From Candidatus Methanomethylophilaceae archaeon (lineage in GTDB: Archaea; Thermoplasmatota; Thermoplasmata; Methanomassiliicoccales; Methanomethylophilaceae): a stretch of 64,000 nt of DNA. The position numbers were made by a program, and so were the translations under genes. Position 1 is the stretch's first letter, and each line of letters starts with the position of its first letter. The DNA is taken from NCBI GenBank assembly GCA_944320495.1, contig CALUHR010000013.1, positions 320,001-384,000 of the forward strand, in the 5' to 3' direction. Shown here in pieces: positions 5,123-60,436 of this stretch. Below the pieces are notes generated by a model that worked only from the letters and a program-made list of their open reading frames with translations, ran no database searches and was not told the DNA's origin.

Positions 5123-5752
5123 ATGTCCCCTTCGAAGATCGTCTGCATAGGCTGGAACTACCGCTCCCATGTGAGGGAGCTGGAATCGGAGCTTCCGAAG
5201 GAACCGACCGTGTTCCTGAAGCCGCCCAGCTGTCTCATAGGAGATGGGGAGGGGATCGTCATACCCGCGGGCGTCACGAACGTGCAGCACGAGGTGGAGC
5301 TGGCCCTGATCTTCGGGAGGAGATGCAAGAACGTCTCCGAAGAGGATGCACTCCTGTGCATCTCCGAGGTGGCGGTGTTCAACGATGTGTCGGCTAGGGA
5401 CATGCAGACCGCCGCCCGGAAGGCGGGTAACACATGGGACCTGAGCAAGGGCATGGACACCTTCGGCCCCATGTCGGACCCAGTGCCCGTGGGGTCCGTC
5501 GGTGACCTGCAGGACCTGGAACTGACCCTAACCGTCAACGGGGAGGTCAGGCAGCGCGGGAACACCTGCGACATGATATTCACGGTCCCGGAGCTCATCT
5601 CATACGTGACAAGTTTCATGACGATGGAGCCCGGCGATATCCTCATCACCGGGACCCCGGAGGGGGTGTCGGAGATCAGGCCCGGCGACGTCGTGCGCGC
5701 CGAGATCGAGGGTGTGGGCGTCGTCACCAACCCCGTGGTTTCGGGCGCCCGA
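5123..5752 (+). CDS. Fumarylacetoacetate hydrolase family protein; inferred to end at CGA 5750-5752
   Basis: KIVCIGWNY, FLKPPS, HEVELA and GDILITGTPEGV motifs; GGAGG upstream of ATG 5123. The domain ends at ...TNPVVSGA and is followed by CGA; the standard code fuses it to purS. Confidence 0.88.
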
Positions 5753-9301: not shown

Positions 9302-9958
9302 TCGGACGTTGACCTTCACGTCCACCCTGTCGCCGTCCTCGAGGCTGAGGGTCCTGCGGAGGTGGTACTGGCAGATGATCTCGATGATGTCCGCGTAGTG
9401 GGACCTCTCGGGGACCACGATGGCGCAGTCGATGTTGCGTATCCTCGCCTTGTAGGCGACGACGTTGCCGAAGCTGCGGCCGTTGTCCGTGAATCCGTTA
9501 ATCGGCACCCCGGCCACGCTCTTGATGACGTCGAGCTTCCCGACGTCGTCCGGGTCCACATGGATGTTCAGGGTGCCCTCGAAGGGCTCGAACCCGAGTT
9601 TGGACTTGAACTGATCCAGATAGCCGGGCTGGCAGATGTAGTAGCCGCCCTCGCCCATCCCCGACTGCACCGCGCCGTGGATGGTGATGTGGTCCGTGAG
9701 CTCGAAGATCCTGCGGTACTCGTTGTACTCCTTGCGCAGGTCGTCTATCCCCTTCTGGGTCAGCTTGATGCGCTGCCTGCGGGCGCCCAGGTCCCTGACG
9801 ATGTACTTCTCCTCCAGGAGCTCCAGAATCCTCTTGGAGGCAGATTGCTGGCTCATCTCGAGCGCTTCGCCGAGCTCCCTCGAGGAGATGGCGATGTAAT
9901 CGTCCATGGCTCCAAGCAGGGCGAGCTTCCTGAGTGCGAAGGAGTACTTCTCGTCCAT
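9302..9958 (-). CDS. ribK: CTP-dependent riboflavin kinase with N-terminal winged HTH; inferred to end at CGA 9302-9304
   Basis: HTH (SQQSASKRILEL), VQSGMGEGGYY, PFEGTLN, VVPERSHY and LRRTLSLEDGDRV motifs; in-frame CGA follows ...DVKVNV. Confidence 0.92.
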
Positions 9959-33474: not shown

Positions 33475-34020
33475 TCGGACCCAGATCGCGTGGCGGCGGC
33501 GCATGTCGTCCTCGGAGATCTCCTCGCGGGACATTATCTCGCTGACGATGCCGTCGAACAGCAGCAGCGCGGAGTCCTCGAAGACGGTCCCCAGGGGGGC
33601 CACCCTGTGCAGTCCCTCGCCCTCGGGAACGCTCATGACCAGGGACACGTCGGAGACGCGGGTCAGCGGGCTTCCGCTGGTGCCCGTTATGCAGAATATC
33701 TCGGACCCTATGCGACGGGCGATTTCCGCTGTCTGCACAACCGACGACGTCCTGCCGGTGTAGGATATGAGGAGGGTGAGGTCCTCCTTCCCGATTATGG
33801 GGGTGGTCATCTCGCCCACGAAATGCACGTCGAGCCCGAGCTGGACGAGACGCACCGCGAACATCTGGCCCACCAGCCCGGAGCGGCCGGACCCGTAGAC
33901 GAAGACCTTGCGATGGCTCAGGATCCCGGAGACTAGCTCCTCCCTGGCGTCGGCGTCGACCGAGCGGACTGCGGTCCTGCAGGTGTCCAGCAGGGTGTCC
34001 AGGTCGTCCAACTCACTCAC
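33475..34020 (-). CDS. hxlB: 6-phospho-3-hexuloisomerase (SIS domain); inferred to end at CGA 33475-33477
   Basis: FVYGSGRSGLVG, ISYTGRT and APLGTVFEDSALL motifs; ends MRRRHAIWV then CGA. Confidence 0.9.
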
Positions 34021-35814: not shown

Positions 35815-36497
35815 CCGCCGAGCAGGATGCCAGGGAGAGGCGCGTCGCATGGGCGATGCTCATAGGATGTCCCCTGTCCTTCATGTTCATCTCCGTGTTC
35901 TCGTTCCTGGGCGTGGCGCCCGGGATCGAGGCAGGGCATCCTCCGATATACCTCATCGCGACTTGCATCGCATGGGCGATAGTGTCCGTGTTCCTGCCGG
36001 CCCTCAGGCTGCTGAGGCTGGTCTCCCTGCCCTCGGCGTTCCTGTTCGTGGTCTACGCGAACATGTACTTCTACGTGGTCTCGCTGAACGTCGGGCTGTA
36101 CCTGAACGTCAGCTGGTGGGGGGACATGGGGCATGTCATCTCGTCCACCATCGTCACCATGATCGTCTTCCTGGCACTGTGCATCATGGAGGTGTACTCG
36201 CCCGCCCACGTGACCTTCGGCAGGAGGGGAGGGATGGCGGCGATGCTGTTCTTCGTCGCCCTCAGCTTCGGCGGGATCTGGGAGATGATGGAGGGCTTCG
36301 CCGACTTCGCTGGGGGCGGATCCTACATGGTCTACGGTGCCAGCGACACCATGGGGGACCTCACCGCCGACCTGATCGGCGTGATCATCGTCACCGCCTG
36401 CGCCTACTGGTACCTCGGCAGGAGGGCCCCCGCCGACATCTGCTCTTCCATACGCTTCGGGAGGGGTGCTTTCGTTGTCAGGGAAGACGTCGAGCGA
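35808..36497 (+). CDS. Membrane protein (WDxxxH / ExxE / DTMxDL motif type); inferred to end at CGA 36495-36497
   Basis: WWGDMGH, GGIWEMME and DTMGDLTADLIG resemble a putative membrane metallohydrolase family; the protein-like sequence ends at VREDVE-CGA. Confidence 0.75.
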
Positions 36498-40993: not shown

Positions 40994-42349
40994 GTGACAT
41001 ATCTCACGGTCCCGTTCTTCACCTACATATTCGCGGTGCTGCCGGTCTGGCTGCCCCTGCTGGCAACGGACCTGGTGGCGCTGTACATCCTCATATTCAG
41101 GGAGAGGCACGACCCGAGGACGCTGATATTCTGGGTGGCGGTGGTGTTCATACTGCCGTTCCTAGGCTTCCTCTTCTACCTGCTGTTCGGCTGCACGCTG
41201 TTCGTCAGACGGTGGGGCTCGCGGAAGGAGGCATCCGACAGGAGGTTCCTGTCGGGCGTCTCGGAGGAGCCCCCGGAGGACGGCCGCAGGCTGTCCAACG
41301 TGCTCTCCAGCGCCGGGGCCGACGTGTACACGTCCGGGAACGGCGTCAGGCTGTTCTGGGACGCTCCGGACTCCTGGGGGACCTGCATGGACGCCATCCT
41401 CGCTGCCAGCCGCAGCGTGCACATCGAGACCAACAGGCTCCCGGACGACCCGTCCCTGAGGGACATGCTGGCCTCCAAGGCGCGGGAGGGAGTCGACGTC
41501 CGCATCGTCACCGGGACCCGCGGGTTCGGGAGGACCCCCGGTCTCCGCGAGCTCAGGCGCGCGGGGGTCAGGTACACAACCTTCCACGGATGGTTCCTCT
41601 CTACGTTCTCGCTCAGGGTCGAGAGCCGCTGCCTCAGGGATCTCCTCGTGGTCGACGGCTCTGTGGCGTTCACCTGCCTCGGGTCGTCGATAGAGGTCGA
41701 GGGCAGGGCCGCATCCCGCCTGGACCGCAGGTTCCTCGCCGACTGGGCGTTCGCATCCGGGGAGGCCGTCGACGTCCACGAAGACGTCCAGTCCTCCGAC
41801 GGCGGGTGCGGGGTGCAGGTGGTCCCGTCCGGTCCCGATTCGTCAGGGATGGCCATGCTCCACGGGTACTCCGAGATAATATCGGAGGCGAGGGACAGGC
41901 TGTACCTCACGTTCCCGTTCCTGATCCCCAACGACGAGATGTACAACGCCATCAAGCAGGCGGTCATCGCGGGCACCGACGTCAGGATACTCATCCCGTC
42001 GGTCTGCAGGCACTGGTACCAGCCCTGGAACTCCCTTGCCGCCTCCAACCCGCTCATGCAGGCCGGCGCGAGGGTGTACTTCTCTGACACGGCGTCGGTG
42101 AGATGCCTCGCCGTGGCGGACGGCAGGGTGCTGGCCATGGGGACCGGCGTCTTCAACTCCAGGTCCCTGTGGGCAGACTACGCGGTGAACGTGGTCGTCA
42201 GGTCGGAGGATGTGGCCAGGGACGCCGAGAGGGCGTTCATGGCCGAGCTCGACGGTGCGGCGGAGTGCCTCCCGGAGGAGTACAGCCGCAGGTCCTTCGC
42301 GGATCGCATCAAGATTGCGGTCGCCAGGATGCTGATGTTCCTGAACCGA
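40994..42349 (+). CDS. Cardiolipin-synthase-like PLD-fold membrane protein with degenerate HKD motifs; inferred to end at CGA 42347-42349
   Basis: PLDc_N (RHDPRTLIFW...LPFLGFLFYLLFG), YTSGNGV, TFPFLIPN and GTDVRILIP motifs. Confidence 0.85.
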
Positions 42350-44610: not shown

Positions 44611-45135
44611 ATGGCATGGCCGTTCGGTAAGAAGGATGAGAAGCCGGTCGAGAACAAGCTGCCGGAGCAGTCCGAGAGGCAGTACAACCTGTTCTGGATG
44701 ATCCGCATGAGCCCGTTCGCCGACCGCTCGGACGAGGAGGTCCAGCAGGCCATCGACAGGAAGATCGCGGAGGTCGAGAGGACCCTGAGGACCCAGCCCG
44801 TCGAGATGGTCCGCGTCAAGAGCGAGAGGAAGGTCGAGAAGCTGAAGGCGCTCTCCGGTGACAGCGCAGCCATCGCCGCCGAGAGGGACGAGGCCATCCT
44901 CCACTTCAACAGGAACATGATCGAGGACAACGGAGGTTCCGTCCCCACCGATCCCGAGAAGATCTCGGCCACCGTGTCCAGGGAGGGGTGGGCCGACGGG
45001 ACGGGGCTGGTGGACGTCGATGGGATGCCCCACTGCCCCAGATGCGGCTACATCAACAGGAAGACGAAGGTCTGCGTCAACTGCGGATCGAAGCTGAGGC
45101 ACCGAGTCCTGCGATGCCTCGAGAAAACGATTTAA
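44611..45135 (+). CDS. Hypothetical protein with C-terminal Zn ribbon; may end at CGA 45103-45105
   Basis: CPRCGY...CVNCGSKLRH, then CGA; the first canonical stop is TAA at 45133. Confidence 0.7.
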   Translation: MAWPFGKKDEKPVENKLPEQSERQYNLFWMIRMSPFADRSDEEVQQAIDRKIAEVERTLRTQPVEMVRVKSERKVEKLKALSGDSAAIAAERDEAILHFNRNMIEDNGGSVPTDPEKISATVSREGWADGTGLVDVDGMPHCPRCGYINRKTKVCVNCGSKLRHRVLRCLEKTI

Positions 45136-45651: not shown

Positions 45652-45730
45652 GCACGCTCCATCCGCCCCGTGTCCTTAAACCCTTCCGCCGACCGTCCCG
45701 TTATATCGTCGCATGCCGTGCATGTTCCCG

Positions 45731-47083
45731 ATGGATCCGTTCAGGCTGCAGGACCACGGCACGACGCCGGAGAGGGAGGCTGTCGCAGGTTTCACCACGT
45801 TCCTCTCGATGGCGTACATCCTGGTCACCGTGCCGGGGATACTCTCATCGCCGGACGGGATGCAGTGGGGCGCCGTGTTCCTGGCGTCGGCGATATCGTC
45901 GGCCGTCGGCACCCTCGTCATGGCGCTGTACGCCAACGTGCCGTACGCGCTGGCCCCAGGCCTCGGGATGGCCTCGTTCCTCACGGTGACCGTGTGCGGT
46001 GACATGGGATTCACCTGGCAGGAGGGTCTGTCGATCGTCTTCATATGTGGACTCGTGAACATCGCCATAACCCTGAGCAACGTCCGCCGCCTGATTATCG
46101 CGGCCATACCCCGCAGCCTCCAGCTGGCGATATCCGGGGGCATAGGGCTGTTCCTGGCCTACGTCGGACTGCTGGAGTCCGGCCTCCTGGACCTGTCGGG
46201 GAGCACCCCCGCCCTGGGCGATCTGGCCAGCCCCCAGGTACTGCTGTTCCTCGTCGCCCTCGTCGTGTCGATGCTCCTGTACATCCGCAACGTCCGTGGG
46301 GCGCCGATCATCGCCATCGCGGTCATCGCCCTCCTGGGCATCCCGATGGGCGTGACGCACATGGGTGACAACGTGGGCTTCGGAGAGGCAGTGTCCCAGC
46401 TATGCTCCTCCTTCGGGGCGATCTTCACATCCGAGGGCATACCGGCGCTCTTCTCCGACACCAGCAGGATACTGCTGGCGCTGGTCGCCATCGTATCATT
46501 CAGTCTGGTGGACACGTTCGACACCATCGGGTCGTTCGTGGGGACCGGGAGGAAGGCCGGCATATTCACGGAGGAGGAGATGACGACCGCCGGCGATGGC
46601 GGGTTCAGGACGCGGATGGACCGCGCCCTGGTGGCCGATTCCGTCGCGACCTCCGTGGGGGCGGTGTTCGGCACCTCGAACACCACGACGGTGCTCGAAT
46701 CGGTGGTGGGGATCTCGCAGGGCGGCAGGACGGGTCTGGCATCCGTGGTGACGGCCGCGTGTATCCTGCTCATAATGCCGGCGGCGGCACTCATCAGCGT
46801 CATACCAGTGCCGGCCTATTCCGCGATCCTGGTGATGGTGGGCGTGATGATGCTCTCGTCGTTCAGGAGCATCGACTGGGAGGACCTGGGGGAGGCGGTC
46901 CCGGCGTTCTTCGCGGGGCTGTTCATCGCCCTCTGCTACAACATCAGCTACGGGATCGGATTCGCGTTCATCGCCTTCTGTCTGACCAGGGTGTTCCTCG
47001 GCCGTGCCGGGGAGGTCAGCAGGCTGATGTGGGTCGTCTCAGCCCTTTTCGCGGTGATGTTCGCGCTGCAGGCGATCGTGCGA
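45731..47083 (+). CDS. NCS2/AzgA-family purine permease; inferred to end at CGA 47081-47083
   Basis: AGFTTFLSMAYI, ALAPGLG, DTFDTIGS, TSNTTTVLES and QGGRTGL motifs; ends ALQAIV then CGA. Confidence 0.92.
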
Positions 47084-47095
47084 TCGCGAGAAGCC

Positions 47096-48145
47096 TCGCC
47101 TGCGCTTCCTTCCGGACATCGCCACATAGGCGAGCAGATGTTCCAGCTGCACCCTCTCGAGGGGCATGCCCATGCCCCCGGACCCGCACTGGGCTATGCG
47201 GAAGTCCGTCTCCCCGACCTTGTCCAGGAGCCTCACGGCCTCCGCCCCCTCCAGCCCGAGCTCCAAGGCCTGCCTCTGGATCTCCGTGGCGATCTCGCGG
47301 CAGGTCATGCCCTCGCCGATGAGCAGCCCGTCCAGCGCGTCCCTGGCGGCCATGAAGTCGCCCGAGCGTGCCTTGGAGAGCATGTCCCTGACCCCGTTGG
47401 AGGAGCGGGTCTCGGACACGGCGAAGACCGCGTCGAGGTCCACGCGGCCTCTGGTCACGGCGGCCGCCTGGAGCATGGCCATCGCCCTCCTGATGTCCCC
47501 GTCGGCGGCCATGGCGATACCGTCCGCCGCCCCGCGGTCCAGTTCGACGCCCTCGGACTCTGCGACCTCGACGATGCGCTTCGAGAGGTCGGCGCGGGGT
47601 ATGGGGACGAACCTGACGACCCCGCACCTGGACCTCACGGGGTCGATTATCATGGACTGGTGGTTGCAGGCGAGGATGAACATGCAGTTGCGGGAGTAGA
47701 CCTCCATGGTGCGCCTGAGGGCCTCCTGCACCTCCTTGGACATCGTGTCGACCTCGTCGATGAAGACGACCCTGAACCTGACTCCGTCTATCGATGCCGT
47801 GGACACGAACTCCTTGATTCTCCAGAGGGGGCTGTCCATCGTCTTGGTGACGGTCCTGACGGTCGTCTCTCCCTCGTCATCGGTCTCCGTGACGGTGACC
47901 TCGCGTTTCTTGGTGAGGTCGGAGGCGTCGATCTCCAGGAAGTTGCCCTCGATGTTGCCCTCCAGGACCTCCCTCGCGACGATGAGCGCGCAGGTGGTCT
48001 TGCCGGTCCCCGGGGGGCCCGCCAGGAGGAGGTGCGGCACGCTCTGCTGGGACGTCAGCGGTCTGAGCCTCTCGACGGCCATCGGCTGGCCCACGATCCC
48101 GTCCAGGGATGTCGGCCTGTACTTCTCCATCCAGACGGACTCCAT
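47096..48145 (-). CDS. rfcS: Replication factor C small subunit paralogue; inferred to end at CGA 47096-47098
   Basis: [34 protein letters not shown] and GDIRRA motifs. Confidence 0.92.
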
Positions 48146-48239
48146 CTTGATCGGGGGTCCATGCCCCTCGACCTATTAGGGTCCATCGTCCGTCGCAATC
48201 TGCTTATATCGCAAACTGGTTAAGCGGTCACTTAATGGG

Positions 48240-49040
48240 ATGAACGGCATGGACGACATCGCGGAGGATCTGAGGGTGGTGTCGGACGGGACGAGGTTCT
48301 CGATCCTGGCCATCCTCCTCAGGCACGACATCTGCTCCGGGGCCCTGGCACGCAGGCTGGGGATATCCGAGGCGGCCGTGTCCCAGCACATGAGGGTGCT
48401 GAGGGAGGCCGGTTTCGTCACTCCCGTCCGCCGCGGGTACTTCACCCACTACGAGGTGGACCGCGACAGGATCCGCATGCTGGCACATGCTCTGGAGGCC
48501 ATGTCCCTGAGCGACCGCGCCCCATGCGACCCGGTCCTCGAGGGATGTGACAGGAAGGGCCGCGGGAGCTGCCGGTCGGCGGTCCCCGGTGCCGGATGTC
48601 CCAGGATGGAGGGCGGTGAGCCCCCTTGCCCGGGGTGCCGCCGCTGCATGACAGAGAGAAGGTCGGGAATCATGAGGGTAGCAGCCACATACGAGAACGG
48701 GGAGGTCTTCCAGCACTTCGGGAGGACGCAGCAGTTCAAGGTCTACGATATCGAGGACGGGAGGGTGGTCTCGTCCGCGGTCCATGGGACCGGCGGCAGG
48801 GGTCACGGCGAGCTCATCAATGTGCTGAGGGAGCTCGATGTCTCCGCGCTCATCTGCGGGGGCCTCGGGGGCGGTGCGATGCAGGGGCTCGAGGCTTCGG
48901 GCATACGTGTCGTGCCGGGATGCTCCGGGGATGCGGACGCCGCCGTGCAGGCGTTCGCCGAGGGGAGGCTGGAGGGACCCACGGGGCCCACCTGCGACCA
49001 CCACGGCGAGGGTCACCAGTGCTCCTGCGGGAGGCACCGA
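48240..49040 (+). CDS. ArsR-family HTH, Cys-rich linker and NifB/NifX (FeMo-co-binding-like) domain in one reading frame; inferred to end at CGA 49038-49040
   Basis: ArsR motifs (TRFSIL, SQHMRVLREAG); NifX-like VFQHFGRT...LICGGLGGGA from ATG 48672; His/Cys-rich tail CDHHGEGHQCSCGRH. Confidence 0.82.
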
Positions 49041-51239
49041 TCGCCCGTAGAACGGGACCGAGTCCCAGCCGGTGCGGCGCCTCCTTATGCGCCGGCCGGC
49101 GTCCTCGTACCCGTCCATGACCTCCTTGGTCACGGACGGCATCACGAGCCCCAGCGCCGCATCGAAATGACGCTGGCACACCTTCGCGGCCCCGGGGTCC
49201 TCGCGGTAGGCGGCCAGTCCCGCCTCGCGGCACACCGAGGCGAGGTCCGCGCCGGTGTAGCCGTCGGTGGACCTCGCGACCGCATCCAGGTCCACGCCGT
49301 CCAGAGGCATCCTCTTTGTGTGCACCGCCAGTATGCTCCTGCGGGCCCTCTCGTCGGGCTTCCCCACGAGGACGAGCCTGTCGAACCTGCCGGGCCTCAG
49401 CAGGGCCGGGTCTATCATGTCCGGGCGGTTGGTGGCGCCCATGACGGTCACGTTGCGCATGCCCTCGACCCCGTCCATCGAGGTGAGGAGCTGGGCGACG
49501 ACCCTCTCCCATGCGGAGCCGTCCCCCGCTCCGCGGATGGGGGCGATCGAGTCCAGCTCGTCGAAGAATATGATGCAGGGGGCCATCTGCTTGGCCCTCT
49601 TGAAGATCTGACGGATGGCGCGCTCGCTCTCGCCCATCCACTTGCTGGCCATCTCGGGACCGTTGACCGAGATGAAGTTGGTCCCGGACTCGTTGGCCAT
49701 CGCCTTCGCTATCAGGGTCTTGCCGGTCCCGGGCGGTCCGTAGAGCAGGACCCCCTTCCCCGGCTCGATGCCGAGCCTCTCGCAGGGGTTGCCCTCCTCG
49801 GTGGACAGCACCTCGCGGATCTGCGCCCTCACATCGTCCAGGCCCCCGACGTCCTCCCAGGTGACCTTGGGGATCTCGACCAGCACCTCGCGCATGCCAC
49901 TGGGCTCCACGTCGGACAGCGCAGCCCTGAAGTCGTCCATGGACACGCGCATGCTCTCGAGGATCTCCGACGGGACCTTCCGGTCCAGGTCGAACTCCGA
50001 CATGCGGGCGCTGAGGCAGTGCATGGCGGCCTCCCTGCAGAGGGCGGCCAGGTCGGCGCCCACGAAACCCTGGGTCATGGAGGCGAGCGCGTCCGGGGTG
50101 ACGTCCTCGGTCAGTGGCATCTCCCTCAGGTGGACGGAGAGGATGTCCGCCCTCGCCTTCCTCCCGGGAATCCCGACCTCGATCTCCCTGTCGAACCTTC
50201 CAGGGCGTCTCAGCGCCGGGTCGATGGAGTCCTCCCTGTTGGTGGCGCCGATGACTATGACGTTCCCCCTGTCCCCGAGGCCGTCCATCAGGGTGAGGAG
50301 CTGGGCCACCACCCTGCGCTCCACCTCGCCAGAGACCGCGTCCCTGCTGGGGGCGATGGAGTCTATCTCGTCCAGGAACACGATGCTGGGTGCGCTCTCC
50401 TCCGCCTTCTTGAATATCTCCCTCAGGCGCTCCTCGCTCTGGCCGTAGTACTGGCCCATGATCTCCGGTCCGCGGACCGAGAACAGGGTGGCGCCCGACT
50501 CGTTGGCGACCGCCTCGGCCATGAGGGTCTTCCCTGTGCCGGGCGGTCCGTAGAGGAGTACGCCCCTCGGGGCCCCTATGCCCAGGCGCTCGAAGAGCTC
50601 CGGATGCTTCAGGGGGAGCTCTATCATCTCACGGATGCGCTTCAGCTCGTCATCCAGGCCGCCCACGTCGTCATAGGTGATCTGATGGCCGGTCTGGCTC
50701 TTCGCCGTCTCACGCTTGCGGGGACCGTCCCTGACGACAACCTTGGTGGATTCCGTGACGATGACCGGTCCCTTCGGGACGGTGGATGCGACCGAGAACG
50801 TGGAGCGGTTGCCCATGAGGGCGATGTTCGGCACGATGATGTCCGTGTCCGCCACGAGGGGGCGGTTGAGGAGCCCCCGGAGGAAGATCTCCTCGATCCC
50901 GTCCTCGAACCTGATGCGCTTGCCCTCGGGGATGTTCGGGGAGAGGACGACCTGCTCGGCGGGGGCGGGGTCGCATCTCCTCACGGTGACGCTCTCGTCC
51001 ACGCTGACCCCCGCGTTGGTCCTGGTGAGGCCGTCTATCAGCAGCAGGCCGCGGCCCTCGTCCGTCTGGTCGCCCTTGAAGACCTTGGCGACGACGGTGC
51101 GCTTCCCGACGATCTCGATGGTGTCCCCCAGCTCCAGACCGAGGGCCCTGCGGGACTCGGAGTCCATCCTAGCCCTCCCATATCCCGCCTCGGACTGGGA
51201 CCTGGCCATCGCGACTTTCAGGACGATCGAATCGGACAT
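49041..51239 (-). CDS. cdc48: CDC48/VAT AAA+ ATPase; inferred to end at CGA 49041-49043
   Basis: N-domain plus two AAA modules (GPPGTGKT twice, FLDEIDS, FFDELDS, RPGRFDR); ends WDSVPFYG then CGA. Confidence 0.95.
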
Positions 51240-51269
51240 CGCCCGTAATGAATGCGTCCGCTCGGATAA

Positions 51270-52076
51270 TCATCGCGGTCCCGATCGCTCCCGCAGGCTT
51301 TCCATGGCGTCCGCCGCGTGGGCCCTGAACAGGTCCCTGAACTCGGGGTACTCGCCCATGCCGCGAACGATGCAGCGGGGGTTGTACCCGGCCGCGGCCA
51401 TGACGCTCCTGAGGGAGTCCTCCTCGTCCCCGGCGAGGTCGTTGTTGGCGTGGTCCCCGGCGACGATCATGAGCGGGAACATCGCGACATCCTTGCGATC
51501 ACAGCCCTCCATGAGGCCGAGGGTGCTGTCGTAGTCGGGGAAACCCTCCACCGTCGTGACGTAGACGTCCCTGCGGCCGGAGGCGATCAGCCTGAGCTGG
51601 AGCTCGCTGTACGCCGAGTTCGCGAAGTGGGTGGTGCCGTGGCCCATGAGCACCATGGCGTCGCCTTCCGCCTCGGGGCCGTATGCGGCCCCGATCGCCT
51701 CGATGAGGGCGTCGAAGTCCTCGGAGGTCGTCAGGAGAGGCCTCCCGACGGTGATGGCGTCGAACCTGTCTCTGCGCCTCTCCACCTCCTCCATCATGTA
51801 GTCGTACTCGACGCCGTTCATCACGAGCGTGGGCTGGACCACCACGGTCCCGTAGCCCTCGTCGGCCAGCCTGTCCAGGGCGGCATCGACGAAGTCGACG
51901 TGGATGCCCCTCTTCTCGAGGATCCTTATCACCGGACGGCTGGTGAACGCCCTCCTGACATCCCATCCGGGGAAGGATTCTGCGATGTGCCTCTCGATGG
52001 CGCCGATGGTCTTCTCGCGGGTATCATCGTAGCTCGTCCCGTAGCTGGCGACGAGGATGGCCTTCTTTTCCGACAT
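51270..52076 (-). CDS. cbiK: Sirohydrochlorin cobaltochelatase CbiK; may end at CGA 51285-51287
   Basis: LVASYGTS, RRAFTS, MGHGT, TVEGFP, PLMIVAGDHANND and GMGE motifs. Confidence 0.93.
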   Translation of the reverse strand: MSEKKAILVASYGTSYDDTREKTIGAIERHIAESFPGWDVRRAFTSRPVIRILEKRGIHVDFVDAALDRLADEGYGTVVVQPTLVMNGVEYDYMMEEVERRRDRFDAITVGRPLLTTSEDFDALIEAIGAAYGPEAEGDAMVLMGHGTTHFANSAYSELQLRLIASGRRDVYVTTVEGFPDYDSTLGLMEGCDRKDVAMFPLMIVAGDHANNDLAGDEEDSLRSVMAAAGYNPRCIVRGMGEYPEFRDLFRAHAADAMESLRERSGPR

Positions 52077-59243: not shown

Positions 59244-59873
59244 TCAGGCGCCGTCCAATCTGGCCGCATCGACCGAGGCCCTGGCGAGCGCATCGATGTC
59301 GACGGCAGCGCTCATCTCCGCCACCTTGGCGGGGTCCGCCTCCGTGACGGGGTGGATGGGAACGATGGAGCATCCGTGACCCGGTCTGATGGATATGTCA
59401 TAGGTCCCGATGTCCTTGGCTATGGCCTCGATCTCGAGCTTGTCCATGCCGATGAGCGGTCTGACGACGGGGAAGTCGAGACCCTGGTTCTCCGCGCGTA
59501 TGTTGCGGAGCGTCTGCGAAGCGACCTGTCCGAGCGAGTCGCCCATGACGATCCCGGAGCATCCGAGCCTTCTCCCCAGCTCCCTCGCCGTCCTCTGCAT
59601 GACGCGCTTGCACATGACGCACTGATAGGGATGGGGGCAACCATCGTGTATCGCGTCCTGTGACGGCGCGTGGGGGGCGATCCAGAGCGGGAGCTCCTGT
59701 CCGGTGGATTCCCTGAGCGCGTCTGCGATGTCCCTGACGTCGTCCAGCTGGACCGGTCCGGAATAGGGGGTGTTGTCCATGTGGAGGAGGACGACCTCGG
59801 CTCCCACGGAGCACATTCTGTGGACGGCGACCGGCGAGTCGATCCCGCCGGACATCAATGCGATGAGCCTCAT
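59244..59873 (-). CDS. thiI: ThiI-like PP-loop ATPase without THUMP domain
   Basis: LMSGGIDSPVA, GDSLGQVASQT, RPLIGMDKLEI and IGTYDIS motifs. Confidence 0.85.
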   Translation of the reverse strand: MRLIALMSGGIDSPVAVHRMCSVGAEVVLLHMDNTPYSGPVQLDDVRDIADALRESTGQELPLWIAPHAPSQDAIHDGCPHPYQCVMCKRVMQRTARELGRRLGCSGIVMGDSLGQVASQTLRNIRAENQGLDFPVVRPLIGMDKLEIEAIAKDIGTYDISIRPGHGCSIVPIHPVTEADPAKVAEMSAAVDIDALARASVDAARLDGA

Positions 59874-60436
59874 CGGAGGACCACGTCGCCGTAGTCGTCC
59901 GCCAGCTTCCTGGGAATGGCGTACCTGCACTCGGGGCAGTACAGGCCCTCGCCCTTCTTGTCGCGGACCATCTCGGTCTTGCACTTGGAGCAGAGCGCCC
60001 TGATGCATCCGAGGTGCTTGTCCTTGGTGGCGAGCTGGAGGGAGGGCTTGGTCTCGGTGACGACCGCCCTGATGTAGTCGCCCTTGCGGAGCTCCTTGGA
60101 CACGTCGTCGGTGTACTTGGGGGAGATCTTGGACACGTGGAGGGTCGCGTAGGTCTCCCCTCCCACGTTCTTGCTGGTGCCCTCCTTGGCCACGACGTCC
60201 GCGGTGGCCATGGTGCTCCTGATGTCGGCCACGACCGCGTAGACGACGTCCCCCTTCTTCAGGATGTTAGGGGGGTTGGGGCAGACGACGGATGCGGTGC
60301 ACTCGTCGTCGTCCAGAACGAGGGTGCCGACCTGGGACGCGTAGACGGTACCGTTGTCCGCGAAGGTCCCCTCTCCCGCGGCGTACTCCTCTTCCACGGC
60401 GACCTCGTCGCCGGGCATGACGAACCTGGAATCCAT
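59870..60436 (-). CDS. csl4: Exosome subunit Csl4; ends CGA-TGA
   Basis: VMPGDE, GDYIRAVV, LGCIRALCSKC and CPEC...RKLADDYG motifs. Confidence 0.93.
   Translation of the reverse strand: MDSRFVMPGDEVAVEEEYAAGEGTFADNGTVYASQVGTLVLDDDECTASVVCPNPPNILKKGDVVYAVVADIRSTMATADVVAKEGTSKNVGGETYATLHVSKISPKYTDDVSKELRKGDYIRAVVTETKPSLQLATKDKHLGCIRALCSKCKTEMVRDKKGEGLYCPECRYAIPRKLADDYGDVVLR

Follow-up and report, generated by a model that had tools for sequence, protein, structure and literature searches.

Abutting CGA codons at the ends of two convergent genes point to CGA as a probable, presumably leaky stop codon in an archaeon of the Methanomethylophilaceae

Introduction

This work concerns the codon CGA in an archaeon of the family Methanomethylophilaceae, and in particular a site where two convergent genes, one encoding an ArsR-type regulator joined to a NifX-like domain (ArsR-NifX) and the other the AAA+ ATPase Cdc48, meet at directly abutting CGA codons. 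The site lies in a stretch of 64,000 nucleotides, called the window here (positions 320,001 to 384,000 of contig CALUHR010000013.1, assembly GCA_944320495.1; G000:C13:320001-384000). The genome, designated G000, has 1.77 Mb in 14 contigs and 62% GC. We consider it likely that CGA serves in this organism as a stop codon alongside TGA, by a sense-to-stop reassignment in which the release factor aRF1 would read the codon in a leaky and possibly autoregulatory manner.

Sense codons that became stops are known from organelles, where NCBI tables 2, 22 and 23 list AGA/AGG in vertebrate mitochondria, TCA in Scenedesmus and TTA in Thraustochytrium mitochondria. Accepted changes of this kind have so far been only mitochondrial, and a stop beginning with C would break the U-first rule of cellular stops. 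The present case resembles the organelle codes in that an amino-acid codon stands at gene ends and is absent inside genes. It differs from them in that the organelle codes serve tiny genomes with a handful of genes, whereas CGA ends are counted here by the hundreds in a 1.77 Mb archaeal genome of the free-living type, and also in that the codon is one base away from UGA and the cognate tRNA gene has been kept.

The closest statement on archaea comes from two metagenome-assembled genomes from hydrothermal vents in which CGA is missing from recognisable domains; a stop function was raised there and the meaning left open (Melnykov, bioRxiv 10.64898/2026.04.02.715157). Those genomes have about 50% GC, are without tRNA(UCG) and read CGG as Trp, whereas in the present organism CGG is Arg, tRNA(UCG) is present, and the use of CGA as a stop is backed by the ends of orthologous genes. 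Bacterial reassignments described with the Codetta program include CGA/CGG to Trp in Absconditabacteria, CGG to Gln or Trp, and AGG to Met (PMC8629427). In these examples, as is proposed here, a codon from the arginine set CGN/AGR first became rare and then changed its meaning; however, they are sense-to-sense changes, driven by tRNAs and mostly found at low GC, while the change considered here is sense-to-stop at 62% GC. Tools that infer a code from amino-acid alignments cannot detect such a change of CGA. Within the same archaeal family, genetic code 34 assigns all TAG codons to pyrrolysine in Methanomethylophilus and relatives (bioRxiv 10.1101/2024.09.30.615893). That change also concerns the set of stops but runs from stop to sense, at TAG, and the paper makes no mention of CGA or of changes in aRF1. 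The family supplies PylRS/tRNA pairs for genetic-code engineering, which makes its termination machinery of direct interest. A literature search combining Methanomassiliicoccales, CGA and stop codon gave no relevant report, the sole related statement being the one in the vent-archaea preprint.

Results and discussion

The junction of the ArsR-NifX and cdc48 genes

A preliminary description of the window, made from its letters, had reported two convergent genes ending at abutting CGA codons, and this observation is confirmed. Positions 49032-49049 read AGG CAC CGA TCG CCC GTA, with CGA/TCG at 49038-49043, so that 0 bases separate the plus-strand CGA from the minus-strand CGA, at which the cdc48 frame reads ...VPFYG-CGA. 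Under the standard code neither gene has a stop at the junction, and each frame extends for about 1000 codons across the opposite gene. The table 11 frames, 48240..51248 on the plus strand (1002 amino acids, aa) and 48228..51239 on the minus strand (1003 aa), have exactly the limits that had been described. With CGA as a stop the two genes shrink to 266 aa and 732 aa (Table 1).

The domain content fits the short versions. In the plus-strand protein Pfam places HTH_5 at residues 16-61 and PF02579 at residues 153-240, and it recognises no domain in the read-through frame past residue 266. The Cdc48 domains (CDC48_N, CDC48_2, two AAA and AAA_lid_3) all lie inside residues 7-693, and not one of the 732 codons of this gene is an in-frame CGA. 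The features of an archaeal Cdc48/VAT proteasomal ATPase are present: the CDC48 N-domain, two AAA+ modules and a terminal HbYX tripeptide, F-Y-G. Archaeal CDC48 docks on the 20S proteasome through a C-terminal HbYX motif (PMC3493965), which provides a functional reason for the terminal position of F-Y-G. The tripeptide is strictly C-terminal only if CGA is a stop; a tail of 271 aa would bury it.

The relatives with 84% Cdc48 identity are labelled 'Candidatus Methanoprimaticola' and belong to the same genus as the present organism. Cdc48 orthologues 58-84% identical to the protein of the window end at the same residue. The C-terminus ...PFYG was found throughout the 34 readable related loci, one of them a divergent copy, followed by TGA in 26 and by CGA in eight; the latter come from three species with at least two loci apiece. 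Where ArsR-NifX is the convergent neighbour, its orthologues end ...C[ST]CG[RK][HN] followed by TGA in 12 loci, and an end at CGA was seen only in two loci of the species of G000 (L001 and L011). Other species have a different convergent neighbour ending ...PYMAKDL, and the codon after this end is TGA in 10 loci and CGA in eight. The junction hexamer in about 30 related genomes is thus TGATCA, TGATCG or CGATCG, and the proteins of both strands keep their ends. The site had been called equivalent to TGATCA, and most relatives indeed have literally this sequence with the same two C-termini, which match the expected endings ...CGRH and ...PFYG. Long extensions matching those of the read-through frames, which the preliminary description had considered incompatible with its view, were found in 0 relatives.

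The hexamer CGATCG is rarer in the window than expected (27 copies versus 63.7 +/- 7.8 in shuffled sequences). As both CGA codons occupy the stop position of the orthologues, the junction is not a chance coincidence, and the proposal that both genes terminate at CGA is supported; judged from these comparisons, CGA very likely terminates both.

If the standard code applied, the CGA codons would have to be TGA misread in sequencing or assembly, or the long extensions would be real, or the genes would be decaying. Gene callers do emit the 1003-aa Cdc48. However, this read-through protein forms a cluster of 30 members from NCBI, ENA and Logan assemblies, with FYG followed by R in 15 of the 15 members listed, and the same CGA thus recurs in independently assembled sequences and in several species. 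Together with the series of orthologues, the presence of the cluster across assemblies excludes an assembly error and shows the public gene calls to be wrong here. The extensions are antisense to neighbouring genes, have lost all coding signal and have no counterpart in the relatives, while genome-wide (see below) 354 frames end at CGA and conserved gene bodies are free of it. The standard-code explanation is therefore already contradicted, and we give it hardly any weight.

As a side observation, a number of contigs carrying this archaeal Cdc48 at 77-84% identity are labelled as bacteria (L012, L013, L014, L015, L024, L026, L033, L034 and L039). The labels, on CAVIUM01, CAVDQR01, CAVABN01 and others, include Lachnospiraceae, Bacteroides ovatus, Bifidobacteriaceae, Dialister and Prevotella, and the bins are probably mislabelled.

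CGA at gene ends throughout the genome

Across the genome, CGA gene ends number about 270-350, and the main site is among them. Of the frames that have the GC pattern of a sense strand and a length of 200 codons or more, 817 end at TGA, 271 at CGA, 39 at TAA and 19 at TAG. Downstream of CGA the GC content of third codon positions (GC3) drops from 0.86-0.88 to 0.57-0.59, the same as after TGA, and the share of frames that stay coding-like past the codon, 5.5-6%, is equal to that for TGA. A scan with self-trained codon scores classified 354 CGAs as terminal and three as internal, compared with 976 terminal and 30 internal TGAs. The third of the internal CGAs (G000:C8:98215, minus strand) lies in a 572-codon ankyrin-repeat frame (L284:1049-2764:-), where the coding signal persists beyond it.

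Comparison with orthologues gave the same picture. When three relatives in which CGA is a sense codon supplied the open reading frames (ORFs) for reference, 62 of 243 orthologue ends in G000 were at CGA. The 52,371 aligned sense codons hold only 26 CGAs, all of them at alignment margins or in low-complexity sequence except one, in the aRF1 gene, which is also the sole CGA at a conserved Arg. This count was filtered to the sense frame; an unfiltered tblastn count of 440 reflects antisense-frame matches in a GC-rich genome. Genes that end at TGA in a congener, G004, have G000 orthologues ending at TGA in 152 cases and at CGA in 42; in 11 pairs both ends are CGA. Of 16 in-frame CGAs in G004, 15 align with the point where the orthologue in G000 ends, while the control codon CGG was read through in 129 of 145 cases. 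CGA thus marks the ends of coding frames genome-wide, is exchanged with TGA at orthologous ends, and does not occur within conserved gene bodies. In G000 it ends about one gene in four, and whenever these methanogens of human and animal guts are annotated under the standard code, about a quarter of their genes come out fused or extended.

TAG stands at the end of only 14 sense-frame ORFs with 100 codons or more in G000, and the next standard stop follows after a median of 121 codons, compared with 24-29 after other stops, which fits read-through of TAG (pyrrolysine) in the family. Most of the ORFs apparently terminated by TAG in the GC-pattern scan are artefacts of the antisense frame, and this class was left out of the analysis.

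Spread among relatives

CGA is read through as a sense codon in G013, which belongs to another family (55 of 58 cases), in G029 (87/93) and in G046 (14/19). In G021 (genus g9) and G022 (genus g10) the codon is rare and aligns through the G000 orthologues as sense in 8/9 and 5/6 cases, respectively. The habit of ending genes at CGA appears to extend beyond the genus of G000. The few CGAs of the complete genome G067 lie at orthologue ends in three of four cases, those of G031 in two of three and those of G008 in four of eight. The related genomes represent graded stages, with CGA common, rare or a stop, and bear on the 'ambiguous intermediate' route of code evolution.

One further CGA of G008 is in frame at a conserved Gly of a ...YVP-G-CPP motif (G008:C1:187112-187114, minus strand; L045:7112-7114), where G000 has Gly. 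The gene may be broken, the codon may be an error, or this may be a site of read-through.

The release factor aRF1

Each genome has one aRF1. When aligned to eRF1 of solved structures, the G000 protein has Gln53, Met65 and Ser28 in place of eRF1 Phe56, Arg68 and Gly31; eRF1 numbering is used below. Met68 is shared by a clade of 38 sequences in the aRF1 tree (support 100/99), inside which 21 sequences that also have Gln56 form a clade of their own (100/95). The outgroup families keep Arg68. In a set of 135 diverse aRF1 representatives, 113 have Arg at this position, 11 have Lys and two have Met. The Gly of the GTS-type loop is replaced by Ser (RST versus RGT) in just one of the aligned sequences, that of G000; this genome is also the heaviest user of CGA stops among the genomes examined.

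In eRF1, Arg68 is reported to form hydrogen bonds with the main chain of Ile62 and Lys63 in the NIKS loop (Lind, Oliveira and Aqvist 2017, PMC5681627). In the simulations of that study, Arg68Ala in human eRF1 reduced the penalty for C at the first codon position from about 6 to 1-2 kcal/mol, and CGA was among the codons named. The loss of Arg68 in the present clade, where the equivalent residue is Met, matches this prediction of CGA tolerance and is the main reason to favour direct reading of CGA by aRF1. The agreement is partial, because the simulation tolerates CGA, CAA and CAG, whereas here only CGA behaves as a stop and some genomes with Met68 keep CGA as sense. Two of these, G021 and G022, rule out Arg68Met as a sufficient cause. 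The clade nevertheless offers a natural test of first-base recognition by eRF1/aRF1 and points to a specific residue, Arg68.

The cognate tRNA and the efficiency of termination

A gene for tRNA-Arg(UCG) was found at G000:C13:413317-413390 (L190:1501-1574), 29 kb past the end of the window. BLAST and pattern searches missed this tRNA in G008, G086, G007 and G005, which for G008 was a false negative caused by a divergent copy. Loss of the cognate tRNA is ruled out as an explanation, since the gene is present in G000, in 30 genomes of the family and in the complete genome G008. The anticodon arm is abnormal. The G000 tRNA has an A31.A39 mismatch together with U32 and C38, and the 31-39 pair is mismatched across the genus, being C.A in most members, A.A in G000 and G001 and U.C in G081. 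In the G008 copy (L275:101-177) position 33, a U in nearly all tRNAs, is C, and position 37 is A.

Several properties of the CGA ends suggest that termination there is inefficient. CGA is avoided in ORFs of the top decile of codon bias (5/124 versus 273/1238 overall), and a back-up standard stop follows within five codons downstream at 24% of CGA ends compared with 16% of TGA ends. In addition, the base directly after the codon is T at 181 of 354 CGA stops. Termination at CGA is thus probably weaker than at TGA, apparently in competition with a retained but presumably crippled tRNA-Arg(UCG).

The same data could be read in another way, with CGA as an unassigned 'hungry' codon at which a slow tRNA-Arg(UCG) causes stalling, followed by release through Pelota/ABCE1-type rescue or a non-specific action of aRF1. 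The abnormal anticodon arm and the avoidance of CGA stops in highly biased genes are both expected from such a mechanism, and there is a eukaryotic parallel in the misdecoding of rare CGA codons by yeast eRF1/eRF3, as outlined in PMC7379694. However, about a quarter of all genes would then hang on costly stalling and rescue. The CGA ends also have a preference for the +4 base like that of real stops, and the substitutions in aRF1 lie exactly where first-base discrimination takes place. We therefore regard a hungry codon as unlikely.

Conserved in-frame CGA codons

Two in-frame CGA codons outside the window are conserved. The first is in the aRF1 gene itself. In 23 of 24 genomes of the genus this gene has exactly one CGA, always at the same Arg (eRF1 Arg81; codon 78 in G000, locus L087) and always followed by CTN, while the flanking synonymous codons vary. 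In the remaining one, G005, the single CGA is at Arg28, and other Met68 genera usually also have exactly one, either at Arg28, three residues before the GTS-type motif, or at Arg81. Bacterial prfB, the gene of release factor 2, autoregulates through an in-frame UGA with a +1 frameshift. The situation in aRF1 is similar in that a release-factor gene holds a conserved in-frame codon of the kind at which its own factor would terminate, and it could in this way control its own synthesis. In contrast to prfB, simple read-through by tRNA-Arg(UCG) would suffice. By analogy, the aRF1 CGA suggests a feedback akin to that of prfB.

The second is at the junction of a SIS (GmhA-like) and a HAD (GmhB-like) part in a single frame of 360 codons. 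The junction codon is CGA in eight genomes of the genus, AGA in G012, AAA in the outgroup G018 and CCA in G016, and in G005 and G007 GmhA and GmhB are two separate genes. In the species with CGA the HAD part lacks its own start codon, and the junction is a candidate for programmed read-through of CGA. A functional product of aRF1 and of GmhA-GmhB would require read-through of these codons, and this accounts for the retention of tRNA-Arg(UCG).

The exchange of CGA with TGA, its place at gene ends and its absence inside genes would be explained equally well if C-to-U editing of mRNA turned CGA into UGA, so that the ribosome met an ordinary stop. Editing of mRNA from C to U is not known from archaea. 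It would also leave without a role the Arg68Met and Tyr56Gln changes that are specific to the clade and lie next to the loop with which aRF1 reads the codon, and it would give none to the conserved CGAs of aRF1 and GmhA-GmhB, both of which it would break unless it were site-selective. For these reasons editing appears very unlikely.

A possible mechanism and the points against it

Direct recognition of CGA by aRF1 through Arg68Met, and regulatory read-through, are well-motivated hypotheses on the basis of the sequence comparisons. A NIKS loop without its supporting Arg (Arg68 to Met, with Phe/Tyr56 to Gln) would demand U at the first codon position less strictly. A stage at which CGA was ambiguous is probable, as related Met68 genera still have CGA as a rare Arg codon. 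Pressure for T-to-C mutation in GC-rich species would then have turned many TGA stops into CGA. The resulting competition between termination and tRNA-Arg(UCG) seems to be exploited at the CGA codons of aRF1 and GmhA-GmhB, in the former possibly as negative feedback comparable to that through the in-frame UGA of prfB. The full version of this scheme has, in our estimate, about an even chance of being correct: a true fourth cellular stop, made possible by loss of the Arg that stiffens the NIKS loop and used in several gut genera of the Methanomethylophilaceae, that of G067 among them, with a leakiness by which the weakened tRNA-Arg(UCG) sets the level of aRF1 and of the GmhA-GmhB fusion.

Several points speak against CGA being a stop read by aRF1. 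The cognate tRNA-Arg(UCG) is present in G000 and in the family, and CGA is presumably still decodable. The two conserved in-frame CGAs in fact require decoding, so that the codon is not a pure stop. Only 52% of CGA ends lie within five codons of outgroup C-termini, compared with 84% of TGA ends. G021 and G022 have Met68 and still read CGA as sense (8/9 and 5/6 cases). A search for an independent Met68 lineage turned up a single cluster, P0128, an unrelated aRF1 with Gln56/Met68 whose gene contains at least two in-frame CGAs, on a 2-kb contig too short to judge. The simulation concerned Arg68Ala in human eRF1, while the substitution here is Met in an archaeal factor, and it predicts relaxed reading of CAA and CAG as well, whereas CAA is only mildly depleted (CAA/CAG 0.025 versus CTA/CTG 0.030). 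Finally, the case for termination at CGA has been made from DNA alone.

Other CGA ends in the window

The terminal codons in the window are 48 TGA, 19 CGA and three TAA, with some CGAs consecutive behind one gene. A second convergent pair ending at CGA lies about 2 kb upstream of the main site, and an additional in-frame CGA at 47084-47086 forms another CGATCG there. These and further CGA-terminated frames are listed in Table 1 together with the two in-frame CGAs discussed above.

Table 1. Positions of genes, CGA ends and in-frame CGA codons (window coordinates unless a contig is given)
Feature	Position	Strand	Basis
ArsR-type HTH + NifX/NifB-like (Nitro_FeMo-Co) gene, 266 aa, ending ...HQCSCGRH before CGA	48240..49040	+	ORF with CGA as stop; Pfam; orthologue C-termini
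Probable CGA terminator of ArsR-NifX gene	49038..49040	+	Sequence; occupies TGA position of orthologues
Probable CGA terminator of cdc48 (TCG on plus strand)	49041..49043	-	TGA position of orthologues; terminal in coding-signal scan
Cdc48/VAT-type double AAA+ ATPase, 732 aa, C-terminal HbYX-type tripeptide F-Y-G	49041..51239	-	Pfam; orthologues
Second convergent pair ending at CGA	47081..47098		ORFs with CGA as stop; coding-signal scan
Plus-strand gene of second pair	45713..47083 (CGA 47081-47083)	+	ORF with CGA as stop
Minus-strand gene of second pair	47096..48145 (CGA 47096-47098)	-	ORF with CGA as stop
CGA-terminated frame	5750-5752	+	End of ORF with CGA as stop; terminal in scan
CGA-terminated frame	9302-9304	-	End of ORF with CGA as stop; terminal in scan
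CGA-terminated frame	33475..33477	-	End of ORF with CGA as stop; terminal in scan
CGA-terminated frame	36495-36497	+	End of ORF with CGA as stop; terminal in scan
CGA-terminated frame	42347-42349	+	End of ORF with CGA as stop; terminal in scan
CGA-terminated frame	45103-45105	+	End of ORF with CGA as stop; terminal in scan
CGA-terminated frame	51285-51287	-	End of ORF with CGA as stop; terminal in scan
CGA-terminated frame	59873-59875	-	End of ORF with CGA as stop; terminal in scan
In-frame CGA of aRF1, codon 78 (eRF1 Arg81), outside window	G000:C2:86934 (L087)		Alignment
SIS (GmhA-like) + HAD (GmhB-like) frame, 360 codons, CGA at C13:194145, outside window	G000:C13:193621-194700 (L283:1022-2101)	-	

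Directly abutting convergent stops occur 21 times in the genome. Eight of these pairs are CGA/CGA, the main site being one of them, 12 are mixed and one is TGA/TGA, so that CGA accounts for 28 of the 42 stops concerned.

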